This document shows, one piece after another, positions 2,245 to 32,797 of a DNA stretch of 64,000 nucleotides. Origin of the DNA: Escherichia coli (GTDB lineage Bacteria; Pseudomonadota; Gammaproteobacteria; Enterobacterales; Enterobacteriaceae); assembly GCF_003790525.1 (NCBI RefSeq), contig NZ_CP033635.1. One strand, written 5' to 3'. Made by a program: the position numbers and the translations under genes. Under the pieces are notes generated by a model that made no database searches, was not told where the DNA came from, and worked only from the letters and a program-made list of their open reading frames with translations. Position 1 is the stretch's first letter. Each line of letters begins with the position of its first letter.

Positions 2245-3786
<1,542 letters not shown>

Positions 3787-3806
3787 TTATAAAAATTGCT
3801 AAAATG

Positions 3807-3820
3807 CTAAACCGGTTTAG
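3807..3820. promoter_or_regulatory. perfect 14-bp palindrome CTAAACCGGTTTAG, candidate ScrR (LacI-family) operator upstream of scrY
   Basis: Perfect inverted repeat read directly from the sequence in the scrK-scrY intergenic region. Confidence 0.5.
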
Positions 3821-3865
3821 GTGTTGATAATAAAGCTGACTTTTTAGCCAGAGCAATTATTTTCG

Positions 3866-3879
3866 CTAAACCGATTTAG
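3866..3879. promoter_or_regulatory. second operator-like near-palindrome CTAAACCGATTTAG
   Basis: One-mismatch copy of the 3807-3820 palindrome, 59 bp away in the same intergenic region. Confidence 0.45.
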
Positions 3880-3929
3880 TAAATGTGACAGGCACGACAA
3901 ATCGGGTTACAGATACAACAGCAGGATCA

Positions 3930-4850
3930 CTATTGTGAAGGGAGATCGTGTTGTCGGGGTAAGGCGGTTATCGCGCCTTTAGCCGTGGTCGCCAGAGCAC
4001 CACAAATCTGAGCTTGTGCAATGATTCGTTCAAGCTGTCTGGTATTTGTTGGTATTCCAGAATCAGCCAGACCTGCAAGTAATCCAGCGACAAAAGCATC
4101 TCCTGCCCCGGTCGTATCGACGACAGAAACAGGTTTGGCGGGATAGTGGATAAACTGCCCCTGAAAATACACAAGTACGCCATTTTTTCCTTGTGTAATA
4201 AGCAATAAAGTCAACGAATAACGTTGTACTAATGAATATGCGCCTTGCTGAACCTGGCTTTCGCCACTGATGAATAGCAACTCTTCTTCGGACAATTTAG
4301 CGATATTCGCCAGCGAAAGTGCGCGATCAAGGTATTTCCTTAATAGCGCTTCACTCTGCCAGAGATCGCTGCGGATATTGGGATCAAAACTGATGTTTCC
4401 GCCAGCCTGACGTATTTTCTCCATAGCCAGAAATGCGGTACTTCGGGAAGGTTCTGCACTGAGCGCAATGGAACAAAGATGGAGCCATTCACCCGGCCCA
4501 AATGCAGGAAGGTCACCAGGTTGTAAAAAAAGATCGGCACTTGGGCGTACCATAAAGGTAAAGTTTCTTTCTCCTTGCTCATCAAGTCCTACAGCCACAA
4601 TTGAGGTGCGTTGTTGAGGATCAAGAGACATATAATGTGTATCAACATTTTCTGTACTCAGTGTCTGATACATAAAGCGACCGAAAGGATCATCGCCAAC
4701 TTTGCCAATAAAGGCACTTTTCCCCCCCAGCCTTGCGATACCGACTGCAACATTAGCAGGCGCCCCGCCAGGACACTGTAGTAGTCTCCCCTGGCTTTCG
4801 GGTAATAAATCAACAACCGCATCACCGAGTACCCATACTCTTGCGCTCAT
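3930..4850 (-). CDS. scrK: fructokinase (PfkB/ribokinase family)
   Basis: 306 aa ORF with N-terminal GDAVVD and C-terminal DTTGAGDAF motifs. Confidence 0.85.
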   Translation of the reverse strand: MSARVWVLGDAVVDLLPESQGRLLQCPGGAPANVAVGIARLGGKSAFIGKVGDDPFGRFMYQTLSTENVDTHYMSLDPQQRTSIVAVGLDEQGERNFTFMVRPSADLFLQPGDLPAFGPGEWLHLCSIALSAEPSRSTAFLAMEKIRQAGGNISFDPNIRSDLWQSEALLRKYLDRALSLANIAKLSEEELLFISGESQVQQGAYSLVQRYSLTLLLITQGKNGVLVYFQGQFIHYPAKPVSVVDTTGAGDAFVAGLLAGLADSGIPTNTRQLERIIAQAQICGALATTAKGAITALPRQHDLPSQ

Positions 4851-4867
4851 AAAGGCTCCAATATACT

Positions 4868-4900
4868 AATTGCTAAACTAATTAAATCGGTTTAGCAATT
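4868..4900. promoter_or_regulatory. 33-bp inverted repeat AATTGCTAAAC-N11-GTTTAGCAATT containing a third operator-like copy (TTAAATCGGTTTAG), upstream of scrK
   Basis: Inverted repeat read from the sequence 18 bp upstream of the scrK start codon; shares the GCTAAAC/GTTTAGC half-sites with the two scrY-proximal palindromes. Confidence 0.4.
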
Positions 4901-5014
4901 AAAGCATAAACGCTGCTCAGGAGAGAACAATATTCAGCAGTGGTTACCCGGTATTTTGTGGTGGAAACGTGAATATGCCGGGATTAATCATCTACCCGGC
5001 ACTGTTTATCTCAC

Positions 5015-6493
5015 TTACGCATTCGACCAGCTCTGGATCGAATCTTCATTCCCCAGCTCACCATGCATCACTTCATACGATTTTTTCAGGATCACATCAG
5101 TGTGCTTGGTTAGGTCTTTGAAAATGCCTTTATTCATCGCGTCGTAGCGTTTGGCGTTGCTCTCAACAGGCATAAAGATATCTTTCACGCGAACCATTTT
5201 GTCGACAGCCGTTGCGTAATCCGGGTATAGCCCCAGACCTGCCGCCGTATTGATCGCAGCCCCCAGACTTGCACAACCATTAATGGCGTTTCGGCGTGCC
5301 GGAAGGTTGAACACGTCGGCAAAAATCTGCATAAACAGATCGCTGTTCGAACCGCCGCCAGTAATGATCACATGCTTTGCAAAGTGATTCATTTCATTAC
5401 ACATATTGTCGTAATTGTTCTTCAGCGTCAGCGCCACGCTTTCCAGTATCGAACGATATATCCATGCGTAATCCATGCTGGAATCAAAGCCGATCATAAT
5501 CCCGCGTTTGTATGGTTCCCACGGATTGGTCAGCCAGTCCAGCACCGTCATCAGACCATTACAGCCAGGCGGCACACAAGACGCTTTTTTGTTGAGCAAA
5601 TCTTCCGGTGAAAGATCCTGTGCTTTGGCATCCTGAATTAACGACTCGCCTAGCATGTCGCGTAGCCAGCTCACCGTCCACATGCCTTTGCGAATACCGT
5701 AACCTTCATACAGCAAGGTTTGCGGAATAGAAGACATAATCGGCCAGTACGCTACCGGATCTTTCGGCAGTGCTTTGCCGTTCATCATCAACGCGATGTA
5801 AGTGCCAAGAGAAATTACCGCCGTTTCATCATCCAGTAACCCTGCTCCCAGTGCTTCTACCGGTTTATCACTGGTGGTACAAACAACGGGCAGTCCAACC
5901 GGGAAATGTGTCGCCAGCGCGGCTTGTGGTGTGATATGCCCAAGAACAGTGCCCGGCATTTGCACATCAAAAAGCATCTGTCGGGGAATATTAAACTTCT
6001 CCATTACCGCGGTATCTTCGCTCCATGCCCAGGTCTTATAATCCACCGGCCACTGACCAAAATAGTTGGCGATATTGTCTTTAAACTCGCCGGTTAAACG
6101 GTGTGTCAGATAACCTGAAAAAGAGGTGACATATGCCACATCAGGATTGGTGTGCTCGTAGGGACGTGTAACGCGTGCATCCTGCCAGCTAATCAACGGC
6201 GCAGCTGGCGTGCCATCGGCTTTCAATAACGCACGGCAGCAACGGATGGATCCCAGACCAATACCGACAATATCTTCTTTATTTCCGGCAAACTGACTCA
6301 TCAAATCGTGACCGGCAAAACATAATGATGCCCATAAATCGTCGTCAGGATGTTCTGCGGTATCGGCATCTGGCGTGTGCATCGGCTGCAATAAGCCTTT
6401 GCCTTCGCAAACCACATTACCTTCCAGATCATACATCACCACTTTTGTGCTCTGACTTCCGCCATCAATCCCTATGATGTATTTTTTCGACAT
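5015..6493 (-). CDS. ygcE: FGGY-family sugar (pentulose/hexulose) kinase
   Basis: 492 aa ORF, N-terminal IGIDGGSQSTK actin-fold kinase motif. Confidence 0.85.
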   Translation of the reverse strand: MSKKYIIGIDGGSQSTKVVMYDLEGNVVCEGKGLLQPMHTPDADTAEHPDDDLWASLCFAGHDLMSQFAGNKEDIVGIGLGSIRCCRALLKADGTPAAPLISWQDARVTRPYEHTNPDVAYVTSFSGYLTHRLTGEFKDNIANYFGQWPVDYKTWAWSEDTAVMEKFNIPRQMLFDVQMPGTVLGHITPQAALATHFPVGLPVVCTTSDKPVEALGAGLLDDETAVISLGTYIALMMNGKALPKDPVAYWPIMSSIPQTLLYEGYGIRKGMWTVSWLRDMLGESLIQDAKAQDLSPEDLLNKKASCVPPGCNGLMTVLDWLTNPWEPYKRGIMIGFDSSMDYAWIYRSILESVALTLKNNYDNMCNEMNHFAKHVIITGGGSNSDLFMQIFADVFNLPARRNAINGCASLGAAINTAAGLGLYPDYATAVDKMVRVKDIFMPVESNAKRYDAMNKGIFKDLTKHTDVILKKSYEVMHGELGNEDSIQSWSNA

Positions 6494-20808: not shown

Positions 20809-21072
20809 ATATTGCCGGATAAATTAAACGCCTCTGTCAGAAATGATGGGGGCGTTTTTATTTTGCGAGCAGCATTCCTGATTTTAAACGTGAACGTCGT
20901 TGGAAGAATTAACAGGTATAGAATGGCGTTGGGTGCTTGAGGCTGTCTGGCGTTAAGCATTCGCGAGGTTCCAGATGGACAAAAGCCCCAGGCGATATTT
21001 CTATCAACCTGAGGCCAGCGTTCGAACCCAAACAATTCGAATGTTAGTCTCTTCTTTGCAGGGAGGCAAGAC

Positions 21073-21225
21073 ATGCTGACAAAATATGCCCTTGTGGCAA
21101 TCATAGTGCTGTGTTTTACAGTACTGGGATTCACGCTGATGGTAGGCGACTCGTTGTGTGAGTTGAGTATCAGAGAACGTGGTATGGAGTTTAAGGCGGT
21201 TCTCGCTTACGAATCGAAGAAGTAG
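21073..21225 (+). CDS. Hok/Gef-family type I toxin (50 aa)
   Basis: Below the ORF-track length cutoff; ATG at 21073 preceded by GGGAGG (21061-21066); [50 protein letters not shown] has the Hok family TM helix plus LCE...AYES signature. Confidence 0.7.
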
Positions 21226-21246
21226 CCACCACGCGGGGGTAAAACC

Positions 21247-22585
21247 CATAAGCGCTAACTTAAGGGTTGTGGTATTACGCCTGATATGATTTAACGTGCC
21301 GATGAATTACTCTCACGATAACTGGTCAGCAATTCTGGCCCATATTGGTAAGCCCGAAGAACTGGATACTTCGGCACGTAATGCCGGGGCTCTAACCCGC
21401 CGCCGCGAAATTCGTGATGCTGCAACTCTGCTACGTCTGGGGCTGGCTTACGGCCCCGGGGGGATGTCATTACGTGAAGTCACTGCATGGGCTCAGCTCC
21501 ATGACGTTGCAACATTATCTGACGTGGCTCTCCTGAAGCGGCTGCGGAATGCCGCCGACTGGTTTGGCATACTTGCCGCACAAACACTTGCTGTACGCGC
21601 CGCAGTTACGGGTTGTACAAGCGGAAAGAGATTGCGTCTTGTCGATGGAACAGCAATCAGTGCGCCCGGGGGCGGCAGCGCTGAATGGCGACTACATATG
21701 GGATATGATCCTCATACCTGTCAGTTCACTGATTTTGAGCTAACCGACAGCAGAGACGCTGAACGGCTGGACCGATTTGCGCAAACGGCAGACGAGATAC
21801 GCATTGCTGACCGGGGATTCGGTTCGCGTCCCGAATGTATCCGCTCACTTGCTTTTGGAGAAGCTGATTATATCGTCCGGGTTCACTGGCGAGGATTGCG
21901 CTGGTTAACTGCAGAAGGAATGCGCTTTGACATGATGGGTTTTCTGCGCGGGCTGGATTGCGGTAAGAACGGTGAAACCACTGTAATGATAGGCAATTCA
22001 GGTAATAAAAAAGCCGGAGCTCCCTTTCCGGCACGTCTCATTGCCGTATCACTTCCTCCCGAAAAAGCATTAATCAGTAAAACCCGACTGCTCAGCGAGA
22101 ATCGTCGAAAAGGACGAGTAGTTCAGGCGGAAACGCTGGAAGCAGCGGGCCATGTGCTATTGCTAACATCATTACCGGAAGATGAATATTCAGCAGAGCA
22201 AGTGGCTGATTGTTACCGTCTGCGATGGCAAATTGAACTGGCTTTTAAGCGGCTCAAAAGTTTGCTGCACCTGGATGCTTTGCGTGCAAAGGAACCTGAA
22301 CTCGCGAAAGCGTGGATATTTGCTAATCTACTCGCCGCATTTTTAATTGACGACATAATCCAGCCATCGCTGGATTTCCCCCCCAGAAGTGCCGGATCCG
22401 AAAAGAAGAACTAACTCGTTGTGGAGAATAACAAAAATGGTCATCTGGAGCTTACAGGTGGCCATTCGTGGGACAGTATCCCTGACAGCCTACAAAACGC
22501 AATTGAAGAACGCGAGGCATCGTCTTAACGAGGCACCGAGGCGTCGCATTCTTCAGATGGTTCAACCCTTAAGTTAGCGCTTATG
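21247..22585 (+). mobile_element. IS186 insertion sequence (about 1339 bp)
   Basis: 23-bp terminal inverted repeats CATAAGCGCTAACTTAAGGGTTG (21247-21269) and its reverse complement (22563-22585); encodes IS186-type transposase; flanked by a duplicated GGGTAAAACC-type target. Confidence 0.9.
21302..22414 (+). CDS. insL: IS186 transposase (IS4 family)
   Basis: 370 aa from ATG 21302 (MNYSHDNWSAILAHIGKPEEL...); the ORF track starts two codons earlier at a GTG. Confidence 0.9.
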   Translation: MNYSHDNWSAILAHIGKPEELDTSARNAGALTRRREIRDAATLLRLGLAYGPGGMSLREVTAWAQLHDVATLSDVALLKRLRNAADWFGILAAQTLAVRAAVTGCTSGKRLRLVDGTAISAPGGGSAEWRLHMGYDPHTCQFTDFELTDSRDAERLDRFAQTADEIRIADRGFGSRPECIRSLAFGEADYIVRVHWRGLRWLTAEGMRFDMMGFLRGLDCGKNGETTVMIGNSGNKKAGAPFPARLIAVSLPPEKALISKTRLLSENRRKGRVVQAETLEAAGHVLLLTSLPEDEYSAEQVADCYRLRWQIELAFKRLKSLLHLDALRAKEPELAKAWIFANLLAAFLIDDIIQPSLDFPPRSAGSEKKN

Positions 22586-22768
22586 GGGTAAAACCCCGCG
22601 TACTGAATTGTGATGGTTTGGTCTCCTGCACCCTTTTTTAATTTATATTGTTTATGTGAATATTATGCCTATGTTTATTATTCATATATATTACGGATGA
22701 AAATTATTTGATTATTCATAATGTAAATATTTTATTGAACGATATATATCACAGATAATTTTTAATAT

Positions 22769-25468
22769 ATGCGTAAATATCCTTTAAGTTTACTGAAGGA
22801 TAAAAATATTGTGACTTTTTTTGATTTCTGGGGAAAAACCCGACGCGGCGAGAAAGACGGGGGCGACGACTATCACCTTCTTTGCTGGCATTCGCTGGAT
22901 GTAGCCGCGATGGGCTATTTAATGGTTAAAAGCAATTGCTTCGGACTGGCTGACTATTTTCGTCAATTAGGTTTCGCTGACACGGAGCAGGCAGCACAAT
23001 TTTTCGCCTGGCTGCTGTGCTGGCACGATATTGGAAAATTTGCCCGCTCTTTTCAGCAACTTTACCTGCACCCACAACTCAAGGTCCCGGAAGGCGCAAG
23101 AAAGAATTACGAAAAGATCTCTCATTCAACGCTGGGCTACTGGTTGTGGAACCATTATTTAAGTGAATGTCAGGAGTTGCTTCCTTCATCTTCACTCTCT
23201 CCGCGCAAACTTAAACGGGTGATGGAGATGTGGATGCCCATGACTACCGGGCATCATGGTCGACCCCCTGAGCGTATGGATGAACTGGATAATTTTCTGC
23301 CTGAAGACAAAGGTGCCGCACGAGATTTTCTCCTTGCAATCAAGGTACTGTTTCCGCTCATAGAGATCCCCACATTCTGGGATGATGACGAGGGCGTTGA
23401 ACTTATAAAACAACTTTCCTGGTATATCTCTGCAACCGTCGTACTTGCAGACTGGACGGGATCGTCAACGCGATATTTTCCACGCGTCGCACAGACAATG
23501 GATATTGAAGATTACTGGCAGAAAACTTTAGTTCAGGCTCAAAACGCCTTAACCGTCTTTCCTCCAAAAGCAGAAAGCGCGCCTTTCACCGGAATTAATA
23601 CGCTGTTTCCTTTTATTGAGAATCCGACACCGCTACAGCAAAAGGTGCTGGATCTGGATATCAGCCAGCCGGGACCACAGTTATTTATTCTGGAGGATGT
23701 AACCGGCGCAGGTAAAACAGAAGCGGCGCTTATCCTGGCGCACAGGTTGATGGCTGCGGGGAAAGCGCAGGGTTTGTTTTTTGGCCTGCCAACAATGGCA
23801 ACGGCCAATGCCATGTACGATCGACTGGTCAAAACCTGGCTTGCTTTCTATTCGCCAGAGTCCCGCCCCAGCCTGGTGCTGGCACACAGTGCCCGAACAT
23901 TAATGGACCGCTTTAATGAATCACTCTGGTCCGGTGATTTAGTCGGGTCAGAAGAACCGGATGAACAAACGTTCAGTCAGGGATGTGCGGCCTGGTTTGC
24001 CGACAGTAACAAGAAGGCGCTACTGGCTGAAATTGGCGTCGGCACGCTGGATCAGGCGATGATGGCTGTGATGCCGTTCAAACATAATAATCTGCGGCTT
24101 CTGGGACTGAGTAACAAAATCCTGCTGGCTGATGAGATCCATGCCTGTGACGCTTACATGTCATGCATTCTTGAAGGGCTGATCGAGCGGCAGGCGCGTG
24201 GCGGAAACAGCGTCATTTTGCTTTCTGCCACGTTATCTCAACAGCAGCGCGACAAACTCGTTGCTGCCTTTGCGCGTGGTATAGAGGGCCAGCAAGAAGC
24301 TCCGTTCCTGGAAAAGGATGATTACCCCTGGCTGACGCACGTTACGAAATCCGATGTGCATTCACACCGGGTAGCGACGCGCAAAGACGTTGAGCGCAGC
24401 GTGAGTGTGGGTTGGCTTCATAGCGAACAAGAGTGTATTGCGCGTATCGCATCGGCGGTAAGTCAGGGGAAATGTATCGCCTGGATCCGAAATTCTGTCG
24501 ATGACGCCATCCAGGTTCATCGTCAGTTACTTGCCCGCGGCGTCATTCCTGCTTCCAGCCTTTCACTTTTTCATAGCCGCTTTGCTTTTAGCGATCGCCA
24601 GCGAATTGAAACGGAGACGCTGGCACGCTTTGGTAAAGAAGACTGTTCACAGCGTGCCGGAAAAGTCCTCATTTGTACTCAAGTCCTGGAGCAGAGCGTT
24701 GACTGCGACCTGGACGAAATGATTTCCGACCTTGCCCCTGTTGATTTACTGATCCAGCGAGCAGGGCGATTACAGCGACATATCCGCGATATGAATGGCC
24801 AGTTAAAGCGTGACGGTAAAGACGAGCGTCACCCTCCTGAATTGCTGATTCTGGCCCCCGTCTGGGACGACTCTCCGGGTGACGAATGGTTTGGCAGTGC
24901 CATGCGTAACAGTGCATTTGTCTATCCCGATCATGGGCGAATCTGGCTGACGCAGCGTGTGCTGCGTGAGCAAGGTGCTATTCAGATGCCACACTCAGCC
25001 CGGCTTCTGATTGAATCAGTCTACGGTGAGGACGTAGTAATGCCGGAAGGGTTTGCCCGCAGCGAGCAGGAGCAAGTGGGCAAATATTACTGCGATCGCG
25101 CAATGGCTAAAAAGTTTGTACTGAACTTCAGGCCCGGCTATGCCGCCAATATCAACGATTACCTCCCGGAAAAACTGTCGACACGTCTGGCTGAAGAGTC
25201 TGTTTCCCTGTGGCTGGCTACCTGTATTGACGGTGTGGTGAAGCCTTATGCCACAGGTGCACACGCATGGGAAATGAGCGTTGTCAGAGTGCGCCGAAGC
25301 TGGTGGAAAAAACATCGGGATGAGTTTTCTTTACTGGAAGGGGATGCGTTCAGGCAGTGGTGCGTTGAACAGCGGCATGATCCGGAGATGGCAAACGTGA
25401 TTTTAGTCACCGATGACGAAAGTTGTGGGTATTCGGCTACGGAGGGATTGATTGGCAAGGTTGGTTGA
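22769..25468 (+). CDS. cas3: Cas3 helicase-nuclease (type I-E)
   Basis: 899 aa; N-terminal HD region and superfamily-2 helicase motifs (GAGKTEAA, DEIH); first gene of the cas cluster. Confidence 0.9.
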   Translation: MRKYPLSLLKDKNIVTFFDFWGKTRRGEKDGGDDYHLLCWHSLDVAAMGYLMVKSNCFGLADYFRQLGFADTEQAAQFFAWLLCWHDIGKFARSFQQLYLHPQLKVPEGARKNYEKISHSTLGYWLWNHYLSECQELLPSSSLSPRKLKRVMEMWMPMTTGHHGRPPERMDELDNFLPEDKGAARDFLLAIKVLFPLIEIPTFWDDDEGVELIKQLSWYISATVVLADWTGSSTRYFPRVAQTMDIEDYWQKTLVQAQNALTVFPPKAESAPFTGINTLFPFIENPTPLQQKVLDLDISQPGPQLFILEDVTGAGKTEAALILAHRLMAAGKAQGLFFGLPTMATANAMYDRLVKTWLAFYSPESRPSLVLAHSARTLMDRFNESLWSGDLVGSEEPDEQTFSQGCAAWFADSNKKALLAEIGVGTLDQAMMAVMPFKHNNLRLLGLSNKILLADEIHACDAYMSCILEGLIERQARGGNSVILLSATLSQQQRDKLVAAFARGIEGQQEAPFLEKDDYPWLTHVTKSDVHSHRVATRKDVERSVSVGWLHSEQECIARIASAVSQGKCIAWIRNSVDDAIQVHRQLLARGVIPASSLSLFHSRFAFSDRQRIETETLARFGKEDCSQRAGKVLICTQVLEQSVDCDLDEMISDLAPVDLLIQRAGRLQRHIRDMNGQLKRDGKDERHPPELLILAPVWDDSPGDEWFGSAMRNSAFVYPDHGRIWLTQRVLREQGAIQMPHSARLLIESVYGEDVVMPEGFARSEQEQVGKYYCDRAMAKKFVLNFRPGYAANINDYLPEKLSTRLAEESVSLWLATCIDGVVKPYATGAHAWEMSVVRVRRSWWKKHRDEFSLLEGDAFRQWCVEQRHDPEMANVILVTDDESCGYSATEGLIGKVG

Positions 25469-25565
25469 GATGTCTGCGACAGGATTCTCTGAATAGTTGA
25501 TACACAAAAAAGGATGGAAGGATGGACAACCGACCAGGGATGGTCTTTTTTACGAGAGGATGCGT

Positions 25566-27128
25566 ATGAACTCGTTTTCACTTCTGACAACCCCGTGGTT
25601 GCCTGTTCGTTTCAAAGACGGAACGACAGGCAAGCTGGCACCAGTCGATCTGGCTGATGAAAATGTTGTCGATATCGCCGCACCGCGAGCAGATTTACAA
25701 GGTGCGGCCTGGCAGTTTTTGCTGGGACTACTACAAACCAGCTTCGCGCCAAAAGATCATCGTCGTTGGGATGATATCTGGGAAGACGGACTGGAAGCTG
25801 AAAAGCTACGAGAAGCATTGCTGTCTTTAGAACATGCTTTCCAGTTTGGGCCTGATTCATCTTCATTTATGCAGGATTTTGAGGCGCTCACGGGAGATAA
25901 AGTTCCGGTCGCTTCGCTACTGCCTGAGATTCCCGGCTCTCAAACGACGAAGTTTAATAAAGACCATTTTATCAAGCGGGGTGTAACGGAATATCTGTGC
26001 CCCCATTGCTTAGCATTGGCCTTGTTCTCTTTACAGTTGAATGCACCCGCGGGCGGCAAAGGCTATCGCACCGGTTTACGAGGCGGTGGGCCGATGACGA
26101 CTCTCATTGAATTACAGGAATATCAGGGCAATCAACAAACACCCTTGTGGCGCAAACTGTGGCTCAACGTGATGCCGCAGGATGAAGCCGACTTACCGCT
26201 ACCCAAAAAATTTGACGATCTGATTTTCCCCTGGCTAGGCCCGACGCGTACCAGCGAACTGGTCGGTGCGGTGGTAACCCATGATCAGGTCAATAAACTC
26301 CAGGCGTACTGGGGAATGCCGCGGCGTATACGTATTGATTTTAATACCACGACAGTCGGCAACTGCGATATTTGCGACGAGCAGAACGACGCGCTCCTGA
26401 GCCTGATGACGACCAAAAATTATGGTGCCAATTATGCCATGTGGCAGCATCCCTTAACGCCTTACCGTGTACCACTTAAAGAGGGTGGCGAGTTTTACTC
26501 CGTTAAACCACAACCGGGCGGTTTAATCTGGCGCGACTGGTTAGGCCTTATCGAAACGGGTAAATCAGAAAACAATACGGAACTTCCCGCGTTGGTGGTG
26601 AAACTCTTTAATGCCAGCAGTCTGAAACAGGCAAAAGTGGGCCTATGGGGATTTGGTTATGATTTTGACAACATGAAAGCGCGCTGTTGGTACGAACACC
26701 ATTTCCCGCTACTGCTCAATAAAAAAGAAGGCCAGATACCGAAGCTGCGGCTGGCTGCGCAAACGGCTTCACGGATTCTGAGTCTGTTACGGAGTGCATT
26801 GAAAGAAGCATGGTTCTCCGATCCAAAAGGTGCAAGGGGTGATTTCAGTTTTGTGGATATCGACTTCTGGAACAAAACTCAGCATCGCTTCCTGAGGTTA
26901 GTGCGCCAAATTGAAGAAGGTCAGGATGCGGATGAATTACTCGGCAAATGGCAAAAGGAAATGTGGTTATTCGCGCGTCAGGATTTTGACGAGCGTGTAT
27001 TCACTAATCCTTATGAGCCCGTTGATTTGAAACGCGTCATGACCGCGCGCAAGAAATATTTTACAACATCGGCGGAGAAGCAAAGTGCTAAAGCCGCCAG
27101 GGAGAAAAAGCAGGAGGCTGCTGAATGA
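25566..27128 (+). CDS. casA: Cascade large subunit Cse1 (CasA)
   Basis: Start taken at ATG 25566 (MNSFSLLTTPWLPVR) with GAGAGG upstream; the ORF track begins at a TTG at 25497; position right after cas3. Confidence 0.8.
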   Translation: MNSFSLLTTPWLPVRFKDGTTGKLAPVDLADENVVDIAAPRADLQGAAWQFLLGLLQTSFAPKDHRRWDDIWEDGLEAEKLREALLSLEHAFQFGPDSSSFMQDFEALTGDKVPVASLLPEIPGSQTTKFNKDHFIKRGVTEYLCPHCLALALFSLQLNAPAGGKGYRTGLRGGGPMTTLIELQEYQGNQQTPLWRKLWLNVMPQDEADLPLPKKFDDLIFPWLGPTRTSELVGAVVTHDQVNKLQAYWGMPRRIRIDFNTTTVGNCDICDEQNDALLSLMTTKNYGANYAMWQHPLTPYRVPLKEGGEFYSVKPQPGGLIWRDWLGLIETGKSENNTELPALVVKLFNASSLKQAKVGLWGFGYDFDNMKARCWYEHHFPLLLNKKEGQIPKLRLAAQTASRILSLLRSALKEAWFSDPKGARGDFSFVDIDFWNKTQHRFLRLVRQIEEGQDADELLGKWQKEMWLFARQDFDERVFTNPYEPVDLKRVMTARKKYFTTSAEKQSAKAAREKKQEAAE

Positions 27129-30120: not shown

Positions 30121-31330
<1,210 letters not shown>

Positions 31331-31426
31331 GTTACCCGTTCTTTAAAAATAAGGAAAAGTTTGAATTTAGTTGGTAGATTGTTGTTGTGGAATAAAATTG
31401 TTTAAAAACAGATACGTATGCTTAGT
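31331..31426 (+). promoter_or_regulatory. CRISPR leader (AT-rich) between cas2 and the first repeat
   Basis: 96-bp AT-rich segment immediately 5' of repeat 1, on the same side as cas1-cas2. Confidence 0.6.
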
Positions 31427-32797
31427 GTGTTCCCTGCGCCAGCGGGGATAAACCGGTGACCATAAGGGCATTTCATACTGCCTTGCTGTGTTCCCTGCGC
31501 CAGCGGGGATAAACCGGTGAACGTGACAACGCCCGCGACAGAAACGTCGTGTTCCCTGCGCCAGCGGGGATAAACCGGGAAGAAGCGGTAAAGCGGGTTC
31601 CAGTTCAGCGTGTTCCCTGCGCCAGCGGGGATAAACCGAAATTAATTTCGAAACGGGCGTTGATGGTGAAGTGTTCCCTGCGCCAGCGGGGATAAACCGG
31701 CTGGCGCACCTTACGCAAAAATAGACGTAAAGTGTTCCCTGCGCCAGCGGGGATAAACCGCCAGGGAGCGAAGCTGTGGCCATGCTGAAAGGGTGTTCCC
31801 TGCGCCAGCGGGGATAAACCGGGGTTCTATTTCCTCGGGATTTGCCGACACGCGTGTTCCCTGCGCCAGCGGGGATAAACCGGTCAACGCTGGTCAGGCG
31901 TGGTACTTCCTCCGGTGTTCCCTGCGCCAGCGGGGATAAACCGGCTGCCGCGCTTTCGGTGTGGGAGCAGTATGAGTGTTCCCTGCGCCAGCGGGGATAA
32001 ACCGAAACTCCGTGGTGTAGTGCGTTTGTTGGTGCGGTGTTCCCTGCGCCAGCGGGGATAAACCGTTGGTATTAACGGGAATGTAGTCACTCCAGGAGTG
32101 TTCCCTGCGCCAGCGGGGATAAACCGGCGATCGTATTTTCCGCTACGTCGCTCAAATGGTGTTCCCTGCGCCAGCGGGGATAAACCGTCGTTGATGGTGT
32201 GATGAGTGTACAAAAAAAAGTGTTCCCTGCGCCAGCGGGGATAAACCGACGACTGAATCCGGCGAGGCTATCAACTGGCCGTGTTCCCTGCGCCAGCGGG
32301 GATAAACCGCCGCACACGTCGAGCTGGTGGGGATTAATGCTGTGTTCCCTGCGCCAGCGGGGATAAACCGCAGTAAACGTTCGCGCGTTCTCGCGCTCAC
32401 GAGTGTTCCCTGCGCCAGCGGGGATAAACCCTCTGTGTATTCGCTACCAGCCAGCACCGGTACGTGTTCCCTGCGCCAGCGGGGATAAACCGCAGGGTAA
32501 CTGGCTGCTCCTCAACCATTCCGCGTGTTCCCCGCGCCAGCGGGGATAAACCGGGGTTTTAGCGACCGGACCAGAGTACGCAACAGTGTTCCCCGCGCCA
32601 GCGGGGATAAACCGTTGCGCCTTAAGTTCCTTAACTTCCTCTGTATGTGTTCCCCGCGCCAGCGGGGATAAACCGGGAGTGATGAATTGGAAGTAACGGA
32701 TAACCGCGTGTTCCCTGCGCCAGCGGGGATAAACCGGACGCACTGGATGCGATGATGGATATCACTTAGAGTTCCCCCCGCCCCTGCGGTAGAACTC
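31427..32797 (+). CRISPR. type I-E CRISPR array: 23 repeats of 29 bp (last one degenerate), 22 spacers of 32 bp, period 61 bp
   Basis: Repeat GTGTTCCCTGCGCCAGCGGGGATAAACCG starting at 31427, 31488, 31549 ... 32708 (every 61 bp); degenerate terminal repeat GAGTTCCCCCCGCCCCTGCGGTAGAACTC at 32769-32797. Confidence 0.95.

Follow-up and report, generated by a model that had tools for sequence, protein, structure and literature searches.

The DNA analysed here is a 64,000-nt segment of an Escherichia coli chromosome (the window), in which the gene order around the element of interest is cysJ-cysI-cysH, hok/sok, the insertion sequence IS186, and then a type I-E CRISPR-Cas cassette from cas3-casA onwards. 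We focused on the 183-bp interval between IS186 and the annotated start of cas3, and on the sequence that directly follows it. This region comprises the promoter and leader of cas3 in the major E. coli type I-E cassette and represents a known kind of control region. In our reading, to which we assign a probability of about 60%, cas3 would be expressed from an activator-dependent promoter that combines an FNR/CRP-type binding site, a leader with a GTG translation start, and an AT-rich upstream tract prone to binding by H-NS. The coordinates of the features are collected in Table 1.

The limits of the interval given in an earlier note on this DNA are exact, with IS186 ending at position 22585 and the annotated cas3 ATG lying at 22769; the RefSeq start in the identical sequence of SMS-3-5 is the same ATG. 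The AT-rich run quoted in that note is present at about 22675-22737. Its description of all 183 bp as strongly AT-rich holds for 22641-22768, which with 83.6% AT is the maximum of any 128-bp stretch in the window, and does not hold for 22586-22640, which has 52.7% AT. The interval as a whole has an AT content of 74.3% compared to 47.7% in the 64-kb window, and 0.14% of the 183-bp segments of the window are equally AT-rich. The AT-rich tract proper covers 194 bp (22634-22827, 82% AT) and extends about 58 bp beyond the ATG. Within this tract, TpA steps occur at a frequency of 0.189, as opposed to 0.042 for the window.

The two parts of the interval differ in their conservation. We compared the window with the alleles of O104:H4, O157, and Escherichia sp. 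MOD1. The sequence 22586-22640 is 93-100% identical in all alleles compared, and sampled partial matches to the interval are confined to query bases 1-55/57; matches to some part of the 183 bp occur in about 3,900 E. coli genomes, and matches to most of its length in about 2,770. Judged from these alignments, the transition from the conserved hok flank to the variable cas cassette appears to coincide with the start of the AT-rich tract. The part at 22641-22738 diverges between E. coli alleles yet keeps 74-83% AT. A tract that starts where the homology common to all E. coli stops, and whose upstream part diverges fast, might also be a compositional scar at the boundary of an exchanged cas cassette, with no regulatory role. 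We regard this explanation as highly improbable, because the 72 bp closest to the gene surpass the cas3 coding sequence in conservation, because AT-richness upstream of cas3 is kept in most relatives despite flanks that are dissimilar outside the cas3-proximal core, and because no other non-coding DNA is available to drive cas3.

The annotated ATG is very probably not the start of Cas3, which we place at the GTG codon at 22811, in frame and 42 nt further downstream. The earlier note had found no Shine-Dalgarno (SD) sequence before the ATG and considered the true start uncertain, and both points proved justified: the best anti-SD duplex at ATG 22769 has an energy of +0.4 kcal/mol, and the SD sequence, frame breaks, and related genes all favor the GTG. 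For the latter comparison we used the best 80 loci encoding relatives of the window Cas3. In all 11 closest relatives (Escherichia sp., E. albertii, Pseudocitrobacter, a divergent E. coli, Intestinirhabdus, Phytobacter, Klebsiella indica, three Citrobacter, and Salmonella diarizonae), a GTG or TTG codon lies exactly six codons before the conserved Trp of a WGK motif and is preceded by an SD-like purine run; the sequence ahead of it mostly contains a stop codon or lacks a start codon. Of 78 relatives, 7 could encode an N-terminus that reaches as far as that of the ATG form, while in the other 71 nothing corresponds to the 14 added codons. The alignment to the K-12-type Cas3 equivalog NF007248 starts at residue 14 of the 899-aa form, just before the GTG-encoded residue 15.

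Frame breaks between the two codons point in the same direction. The window carries a run of three Ts, AAGTTTACTG, whereas the run has four Ts, AAGTTTTACTG, in strains RMDEC465, EC42405, and TUM14771; four Ts are also found in Escherichia sp. MOD1 and Pseudocitrobacter. Strain SCPM-O-B-8794 has another indel that likewise places the ATG out of frame. Altogether, six sampled alleles (five with four Ts and that of SCPM-O-B-8794) have the ATG out of the cas3 frame, and in these the ATG opens just an 11-codon reading frame, MRKYPLSFTEG*. EC42405 and TUM14771 nevertheless contain an uninterrupted 885-codon open reading frame (ORF) from the GTG that is 95-96% identical to that of the window, although RefSeq/PGAP annotates it as a "frameshifted" cas3 pseudogene of 2,701 nt (3070-5770 of either fetched locus). 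Pseudogene-style product names (Cas3'/Cas3'') stand on all 24 best matches listed for the four-T allele. The annotated ATG therefore appears to be an annotation artefact that creates false pseudogene calls. We also considered the 11-codon upstream ORF of the four-T alleles as a leader peptide and dropped this idea, as it is not conserved outside E. coli: the corresponding place reads ATG-TAA in I. alba and lacks an ATG in E. albertii.

The gene encodes a type I-E Cas3 that scores 89.2 bits for the HD domain model cas3_HD (TIGR01596, cut-off 43.45) and 215.7 bits for the helicase core model cas3_core (TIGR01587, cut-off 102.45). For NF007248 it reaches 423 against a cut-off of 569, which marks the window Cas3 as a distinct variant.

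Upstream of the GTG, a 72-bp core is more strongly conserved among the alleles compared than the sequences on either side of it (Table 1). It opens with the palindrome ACGATATATATCAC, a match to the FNR/CRP family. The palindrome is centered at 22745.5, i.e., at -65.5 relative to GTG 22811 and at -23.5 relative to the annotated ATG. In an upstream alignment of 12 lineages, the G, A, T, and A of TGA-N6-TCA are the only (nearly) invariant promoter-proximal columns; farther from the gene, a handful of isolated columns likewise attain 90%. Seven close relatives (Pseudocitrobacter, I. alba, Phytobacter, C. sedlakii, S. diarizonae, a Citrobacter metagenome-assembled genome, and K. grimontii) carry matches of at least 7/10 to TTGAT-N4-ATCAA between -64.5 and -72.5 relative to the conserved start, whereas just 1 of 66 distant relatives has an FNR-type site at an equivalent position. 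The site of Intestinirhabdus alba, TTGAGATGGCTCAC, centered at -67.5 from its GTG, is the positional homologue of ACGATATATATCAC. A second Fnr-like match in the window, TTGATTATTCATAA (22708-22721, 7/10, -96.5 from the GTG), is not conserved in O104/O157 and was set aside as a probable chance match.

This arrangement resembles a control region characterized in Citrobacter rodentium, where the anoxic induction of cas3 by Fnr and CRISPR immunity both depend on a site at -69.5 (Campbell et al., Nat Microbiol 2025, PMC12669028). The Fnr sites predicted upstream of other Enterobacteriaceae cas3 genes lie mostly at -64.5 to -70.5, with that of "Escherichia alba" at -67.5 (PMC12669028). This value equals the one we obtained for I. 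alba, which ties our coordinate frame to that of Campbell et al. At -65.5, compared to -69.5 in C. rodentium, the window palindrome of the TGA-N6-TCA type falls within the distance to the start codon, about -65 to -70, that characterizes validated or predicted cas3 Fnr sites, and in both organisms cas3 is directly followed by casA. In contrast to the published sites, the window palindrome is degenerate (CGAT for TGAT, 7/10). E. coli is not represented among the sites listed in the Fig. 1i source data (PMC12669028). On the strength of its conserved sequence and position, we consider it likely that the palindrome is a functional transcription factor site in this cas3 lineage.

Because the consensus sequences of Fnr and CRP overlap, sequence alone cannot tell the two apart. 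We slightly favor Fnr, as genetic evidence ties the C. rodentium site at the equivalent position to Fnr. Under the CRP alternative, the promoter would have the same architecture, CRP-cAMP would bind the palindrome, and cas3 would answer to carbon status and not to oxygen. The comparison of TGTGA-N6-TCACA with AACGA-TATATA-TCACA gives 7/10; TCACA on the right agrees fully with a CRP half-site, while the left half matches at just 2/5. Some relatives come closer to CRP, namely Phytobacter with GGTGA-N6-TCACA (9/10 to the CRP consensus) and K. grimontii with TTTGA-N6-TCACA. Moreover, CRP activates the K-12 cas3 promoter via TATGA-N6-TCGAA (PMC7019758), a site that by our count lies 21 nt upstream of the K-12 GATAAT and thus also at class II spacing. 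The two promoters are alike in having a CRP/FNR-family palindrome at class II spacing from the -10 (Yang et al., 2020, PMC7019758) and differ in the sequence of the site and in the cassette. A 2026 preprint, citing Medina-Aparicio 2017, describes the cas transcription units of S. Typhi as independent of CRP. Taken together, regulation by CRP is a possible but unlikely explanation for the window palindrome.

No good sigma-70 -35/-10 pair was found in the AT-rich core by a generic sigma-70 scan or by a position weight matrix (PWM) scan. The best PWM promoter score was 7.6, below the mean of composition-matched shuffles (9.8 +/- 1.3), and we therefore refrained from naming a promoter from consensus alone and used comparative spacing instead. 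The lack of a good pair is expected if an activator site replaces the -35. Behind the palindrome, the best candidate by spacing is TAAATAT: GTAAATAT is found at identical spacing in I. alba, E. albertii has TAAAAT, and other relatives have -10-like hexamers 19-23 nt past the palindrome. The distance of 29.5 nt between the palindrome center and the predicted -10 (AAATAT/TAAATA) fits a site centered at -41.5.

From these data we propose the following architecture. The part with about 83% AT (22641-22738) would form an H-NS-binding, silencing-prone and candidate UP-like upstream region. The palindrome at 22739-22752 would stand in for the -35 and be followed by the weak -10 TAAATAT. In this class II geometry, with the site centered at about -41.5, comparative spacing predicts activator-dependent transcription starting at about 22787. 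The transcript would carry a leader of about 24 nt with the SD sequence AAGGA, and translation would start at GTG 22811. The annotated ATG 22769 would then lie inside the core promoter and not be the Cas3 start.

The competing view is that of a purely H-NS-silenced sigma-70 promoter that uses GATAAT at 22754 as its -10, starts transcription at about 22766, and yields Cas3 by SD-independent translation of a leaderless or nearly leaderless mRNA with ATG 22769; the palindrome, centered at about -20, would be an operator or functionless. GATAAT is indeed the best -10 hexamer near cas3 (5/6) and aligns with a GATAAT upstream of K-12 cas3. The ATG is the RefSeq start, it is in frame and open in window-, O104-, and O157-type alleles, which represent the two main groups (about 1,000 and 1,670 genomes, by identity band), and, as is well established, an A/U-rich context could permit S1-dependent initiation. 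However, the conservation of GATAAT does not extend past E. coli alleles (E. albertii, I. alba, and strain SCPM have lost it), unlike that of TAAATAT and its spacing to the palindrome, and the -35 belonging to GATAAT, TTTATT, is poor. The conserved AUG frame expected of a leaderless mRNA is broken by indels in the six sampled alleles with an intact cas3 from the GTG, and the 14 codons that the ATG would add are missing from most relatives, as described above. In addition, a transcript starting at 22766 would fold the SD sequence into a hairpin. We therefore judge this alternative decidedly unlikely.

The hairpin in question is formed by an inverted repeat, TATCCTTTA and TGAAGGATA, which spans the SD sequence in the leader. 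Its folding energy is not significant compared to shuffled sequences (z = -1.25 to -1.64). The three-T/four-T polymorphism lies in its loop, the SCPM allele retains eight base pairs, and in C. youngae, I. alba, and E. albertii the SD sequence of the leader is paired as well. Speculatively, and based on the modelled fold, this pairing (22778-22802) can hide the SD sequence in transcripts that start upstream of about 22778. If this is true, transcripts from upstream, i.e., from hok, IS186, or the GATAAT start, would be SD-masked, only mRNAs begun inside the repeat would be translated, and cas3 translation would be promoter-specific and immune to recurrent IS186 insertions. The AT-rich region gave no Rfam match, the sole match being sok at 20931-21088, so that a structured RNA element is unsupported there.

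The AT-rich tract itself (22634-22827) shows the extended AT-richness and the TpA content of an H-NS target. A high-affinity nucleation motif for H-NS is reportedly tCG(t/a)T(a/t)AATT (Lang et al., 2007); such a motif is not obligatory for H-NS binding. Between 22586 and 22830, five matches with two mismatches are present, as expected from composition alone. The element CGATATATAT was considered as a near-consensus nucleation site and dropped, as it has three mismatches to the motif. In S. Typhi, the orthologous cas3 unit is described as H-NS-silenced (PMC8039139, citing Medina-Aparicio 2017), and in K-12 the cas3 mRNA is 8-fold up in a delta-hns strain in stationary phase (PMC4782391). The S. 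Typhi cas3 belongs to the same Cas3 lineage as that of the window, and in both cases AT-rich non-coding DNA precedes a type I-E cas gene at the cysH-cas3 locus (Medina-Aparicio 2017). In the sampled Salmonella relative, S. diarizonae, Cas3 is about 70% identical and the cas3 upstream region has 74% AT. AT-richness that persists in relatives while the sequence changes, and a tract that seems to start at the edge of the variable cassette, point in the same direction. Base composition together with the work on S. Typhi and K-12 thus makes the H-NS-silenced promoter proposed in the earlier note plausible, and occupancy of the AT-rich tract by H-NS seems to us somewhat more probable than its absence. 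A second AT-rich dip in the window, past the cas genes at about 31200-31500 (GC about 0.40), probably represents the CRISPR leader and could also be an H-NS target.

Several observations weigh against our reading. With respect to H-NS, the nucleation motif with at most one mismatch is absent from 22586-22830. Furthermore, a K-12 reporter, which carries a different, non-homologous cas3 promoter, shows a slight hns effect (PMC7019758), and the effects of H-NS on K-12 cas3 are modest and growth-phase-dependent. The window palindrome matches the consensus at only 7/10, with the left TGA altered to CGA, and 7/10 matches are common in DNA with 83% AT, occurring four times in 120 nt here. The predicted -10 (TAAATA/AAATAT) is weak and GATAAT at 22754 is the better hexamer; the suggested promoter geometry is derived from the spacing conserved among relatives. 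Finally, the 10 nt between the SD sequence and the GTG exceed the optimum, and some translation may start from the ATG in three-T alleles, since A/U-rich leaders can support SD-independent initiation.

Table 1. Features of the hok/sok-IS186-cas3 region in window coordinates, and alleles of the palindrome
Feature	Position	Strand	Remarks
Conserved core, 72 bp	22739-22810		96-97% identity to window
Palindrome ACGATATATATCAC	22739-22752		FNR/CRP-family match, TTGAT-N4-ATCAA at 7/10
Alternative -10, GATAAT	22754-22759	+	PWM 7.26, poor -35 TTTATT; start at about 22766
Annotated cas3 ATG	22769-22771	+	no SD; inside predicted core promoter
Predicted weak -10, TAAATAT	22774-22780	+	21-22 nt past palindrome; predicted start at about 22786-22787
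Inverted repeat TATCCTTTA / TGAAGGATA	22778-22802 (arms 22778-22786, 22794-22802)	+	dG -8.2 kcal/mol
Shine-Dalgarno AAGGA	22796-22800	+	10 nt before GTG; anti-SD duplex -5.5 kcal/mol
cas3 coding sequence from GTG	22811-25468	+	885 codons plus stop; type I-E Cas3, non-K-12 cassette
cas3 coding sequence, comparison of alleles			90-95% identity to window
Upstream AT-rich part	22641-22738		51-81% identity to window, about 83% AT
3' flank of hok/sok locus	22586-22640	+	includes right half of IS186-split hairpin
Target-site duplication GGGTAAAACC, 10 bp	21237-21246 (left copy), 22586-22595 (right copy)		basis: empty site in SMS-3-5
IS186, 1,339 bp	21247-22585	+	23-bp inverted repeats CATAAGCGCTAACTTAAGGGTTG at 21247-21269 and 22563-22585 (verified)
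IS186 transposase ORF	21302-22414		reads towards cas3
hok coding sequence	21073-21225		50-codon Hok ORF, strong SD
sok	20931-21088		Rfam match, 111 bits
Palindrome, window-type allele			ACGAT ATAT ATCAC; left-half core CGA
Palindrome, O104:H4 / O157 / S3-type allele			CTGAT ATAT ATCAC; intact core, 8/10
Palindrome, 2013C-4830 allele			ATGAT ATAT AGCAC; TGA kept, right half broken; belongs to window-like group

The 190 bp around the cas3 start are present in 2,775 of 5,426 complete E. coli genomes, i.e., in about half of them. By identity, about 1,000 of these are window-like (at least 95%) and about 1,670 are O104/O157-like (80-90% identical to the window); the palindrome itself was read in a few fetched genomes, including three members of the O104/O157-like group. 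In O104:H4 and O157 the site reads CTGATATATATCAC and matches the consensus at 8/10 with TGA-N6-TCA intact. Since the left half-site of the window allele is CGAT instead of TGAT, activator binding may be weaker there than at the O104/O157-type sequence. The further-reaching idea that these alleles represent natural variation of an on/off type in an oxygen-responsive control of CRISPR-Cas, with the inverted repeat 22778-22802 acting as an insulator, is quite doubtful.

The control elements upstream of cas3 may serve more than this gene. The gap between cas3 and casA (25469-25566) is 98 bp long, has a GC content of about 50%, and contains a weak terminator-like hairpin at 25532-25551; no promoter-like site was found in it. 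As this gap is short and devoid of a promoter-like site, the cas3 upstream region might direct expression of the entire cluster, as in C. rodentium, which suggests that cas3 and casA-cas2 could share the cas3 promoter in this cassette. In K-12, silencing reportedly centers on the H-NS/LeuO-controlled cas3-casA intergenic region, which has a size of about 400 bp, in contrast to the 98 bp in the window. The cas3 upstream region of K-12 also differs: it has 61% AT, is largely non-homologous, and provides a strong SD sequence, AGGGAGG, in front of an ATG start. What the window region has in common with the K-12 promoters Pcas/IGLB, Pcas3, and Pcrispr is its nature as AT-rich non-coding DNA that precedes a cas gene of type I-E (Pul 2010, Westra 2010, Majsec 2016).

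On its other side, the region adjoins IS186, an IS4-family element whose identity is evident from its length of about 1.34 kb, its 23-bp inverted repeats, a 10-bp GC-rich target duplication, and its IS186/IS421 transposase. It is identical to IS186A of K-12 at 1338 of 1338 bases, and at the equivalent place in strain STEC367 PGAP assigns the label "IS4-like element IS421 family transposase." The right copy of the target duplication constitutes the first 10 bases of the 183-bp interval. The target was a GC-rich hairpin, ACGCGGGG-GTAAAA-CCCCGCGT, located 5 nt past the hok stop codon, as deduced from the computed fold and the empty site in SMS-3-5. IS186 insertions are said to occur next to chromosomal hok genes, with K-12 hokC and IS186A as an example (Pedersen & Gerdes, 1999). 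In K-12, IS186A (K-12 locus 188-1532) occupies an equivalent hairpin, GGCGGGG-ATCACT-CCCCGCC, adjoining hokC. Both insertions thus lie in a GC-rich hairpin just 3' of hok and are flanked by a target duplication of about 10 bp, while the window differs in the hok locus concerned, which is that at the cysH-cas3 ("hokX") position, and in the reversed orientation of the element relative to hok. Together with the recurrence of the junction described below, this suggests that the hairpin 3' of hok is an insertion hot spot for IS186. The insertion probably disrupts the 3' fold of the hok mRNA. The hok/sok module of the window (20931-21225) is apparently intact as judged from its sequence; at the same cysH-cas3 position of K-12, in contrast, the hok ORF is lost and only sokX and the hok start codon remain.

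The junction of hok, IS186, and cas3 is shared by 170 of the 5,426 complete E. coli genomes and is found with two diverged upstream alleles; O104:H4 carries it on the diverged one (about 86% identical). This recurrence might suggest that IS186 dominates cas3 expression here, by read-through or from an outward promoter, with the AT-rich DNA as a bystander, and the transposase ORF is co-oriented with cas3, with no terminator-like site found between them on the + strand. Yet neither the sigma-70 scan nor the PWM scan detected an outward-facing promoter at the right end of IS186, and read-through transcripts from upstream would contain the hairpin that masks the SD sequence. The AT-rich tract and the conserved core are undamaged by the insertion, which separates the region from hok, and both are identical in many IS186-free genomes, e.g., SMS-3-5. 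The known preference of IS186 for GC-rich hairpins, as at K-12 hokC, explains the recurrence of the junction well enough. Control of cas3 by IS186 is thus very unlikely, and we retain the activator-dependent cas3 promoter as the preferred reading.

Why CRISPR-Cas of E. coli is silent in the laboratory is an old question that has been studied almost only in K-12, although the K-12 cassette and its cas3 upstream region differ from those found in about half of the complete E. coli genomes (2,775/5,426). A preprint on Nissle 1917 also uses the K-12 system. For this other half, what our sequence comparisons add is the correction of the annotated start to the GTG and a putative E. coli example of an Fnr/CRP-type cas3 site. 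Moving the start by 42 nt removes spurious calls of a "frameshifted cas3," two of which were verified. It also allows the likely control elements to be placed, with an Fnr/CRP-type site where anoxic immunity is driven in C. rodentium, embedded in DNA prone to H-NS binding. The natural alleles of this site, with TGAT, CGAT, or a broken right half, make the Fnr hypothesis testable in E. coli, including O157:H7 and O104:H4.

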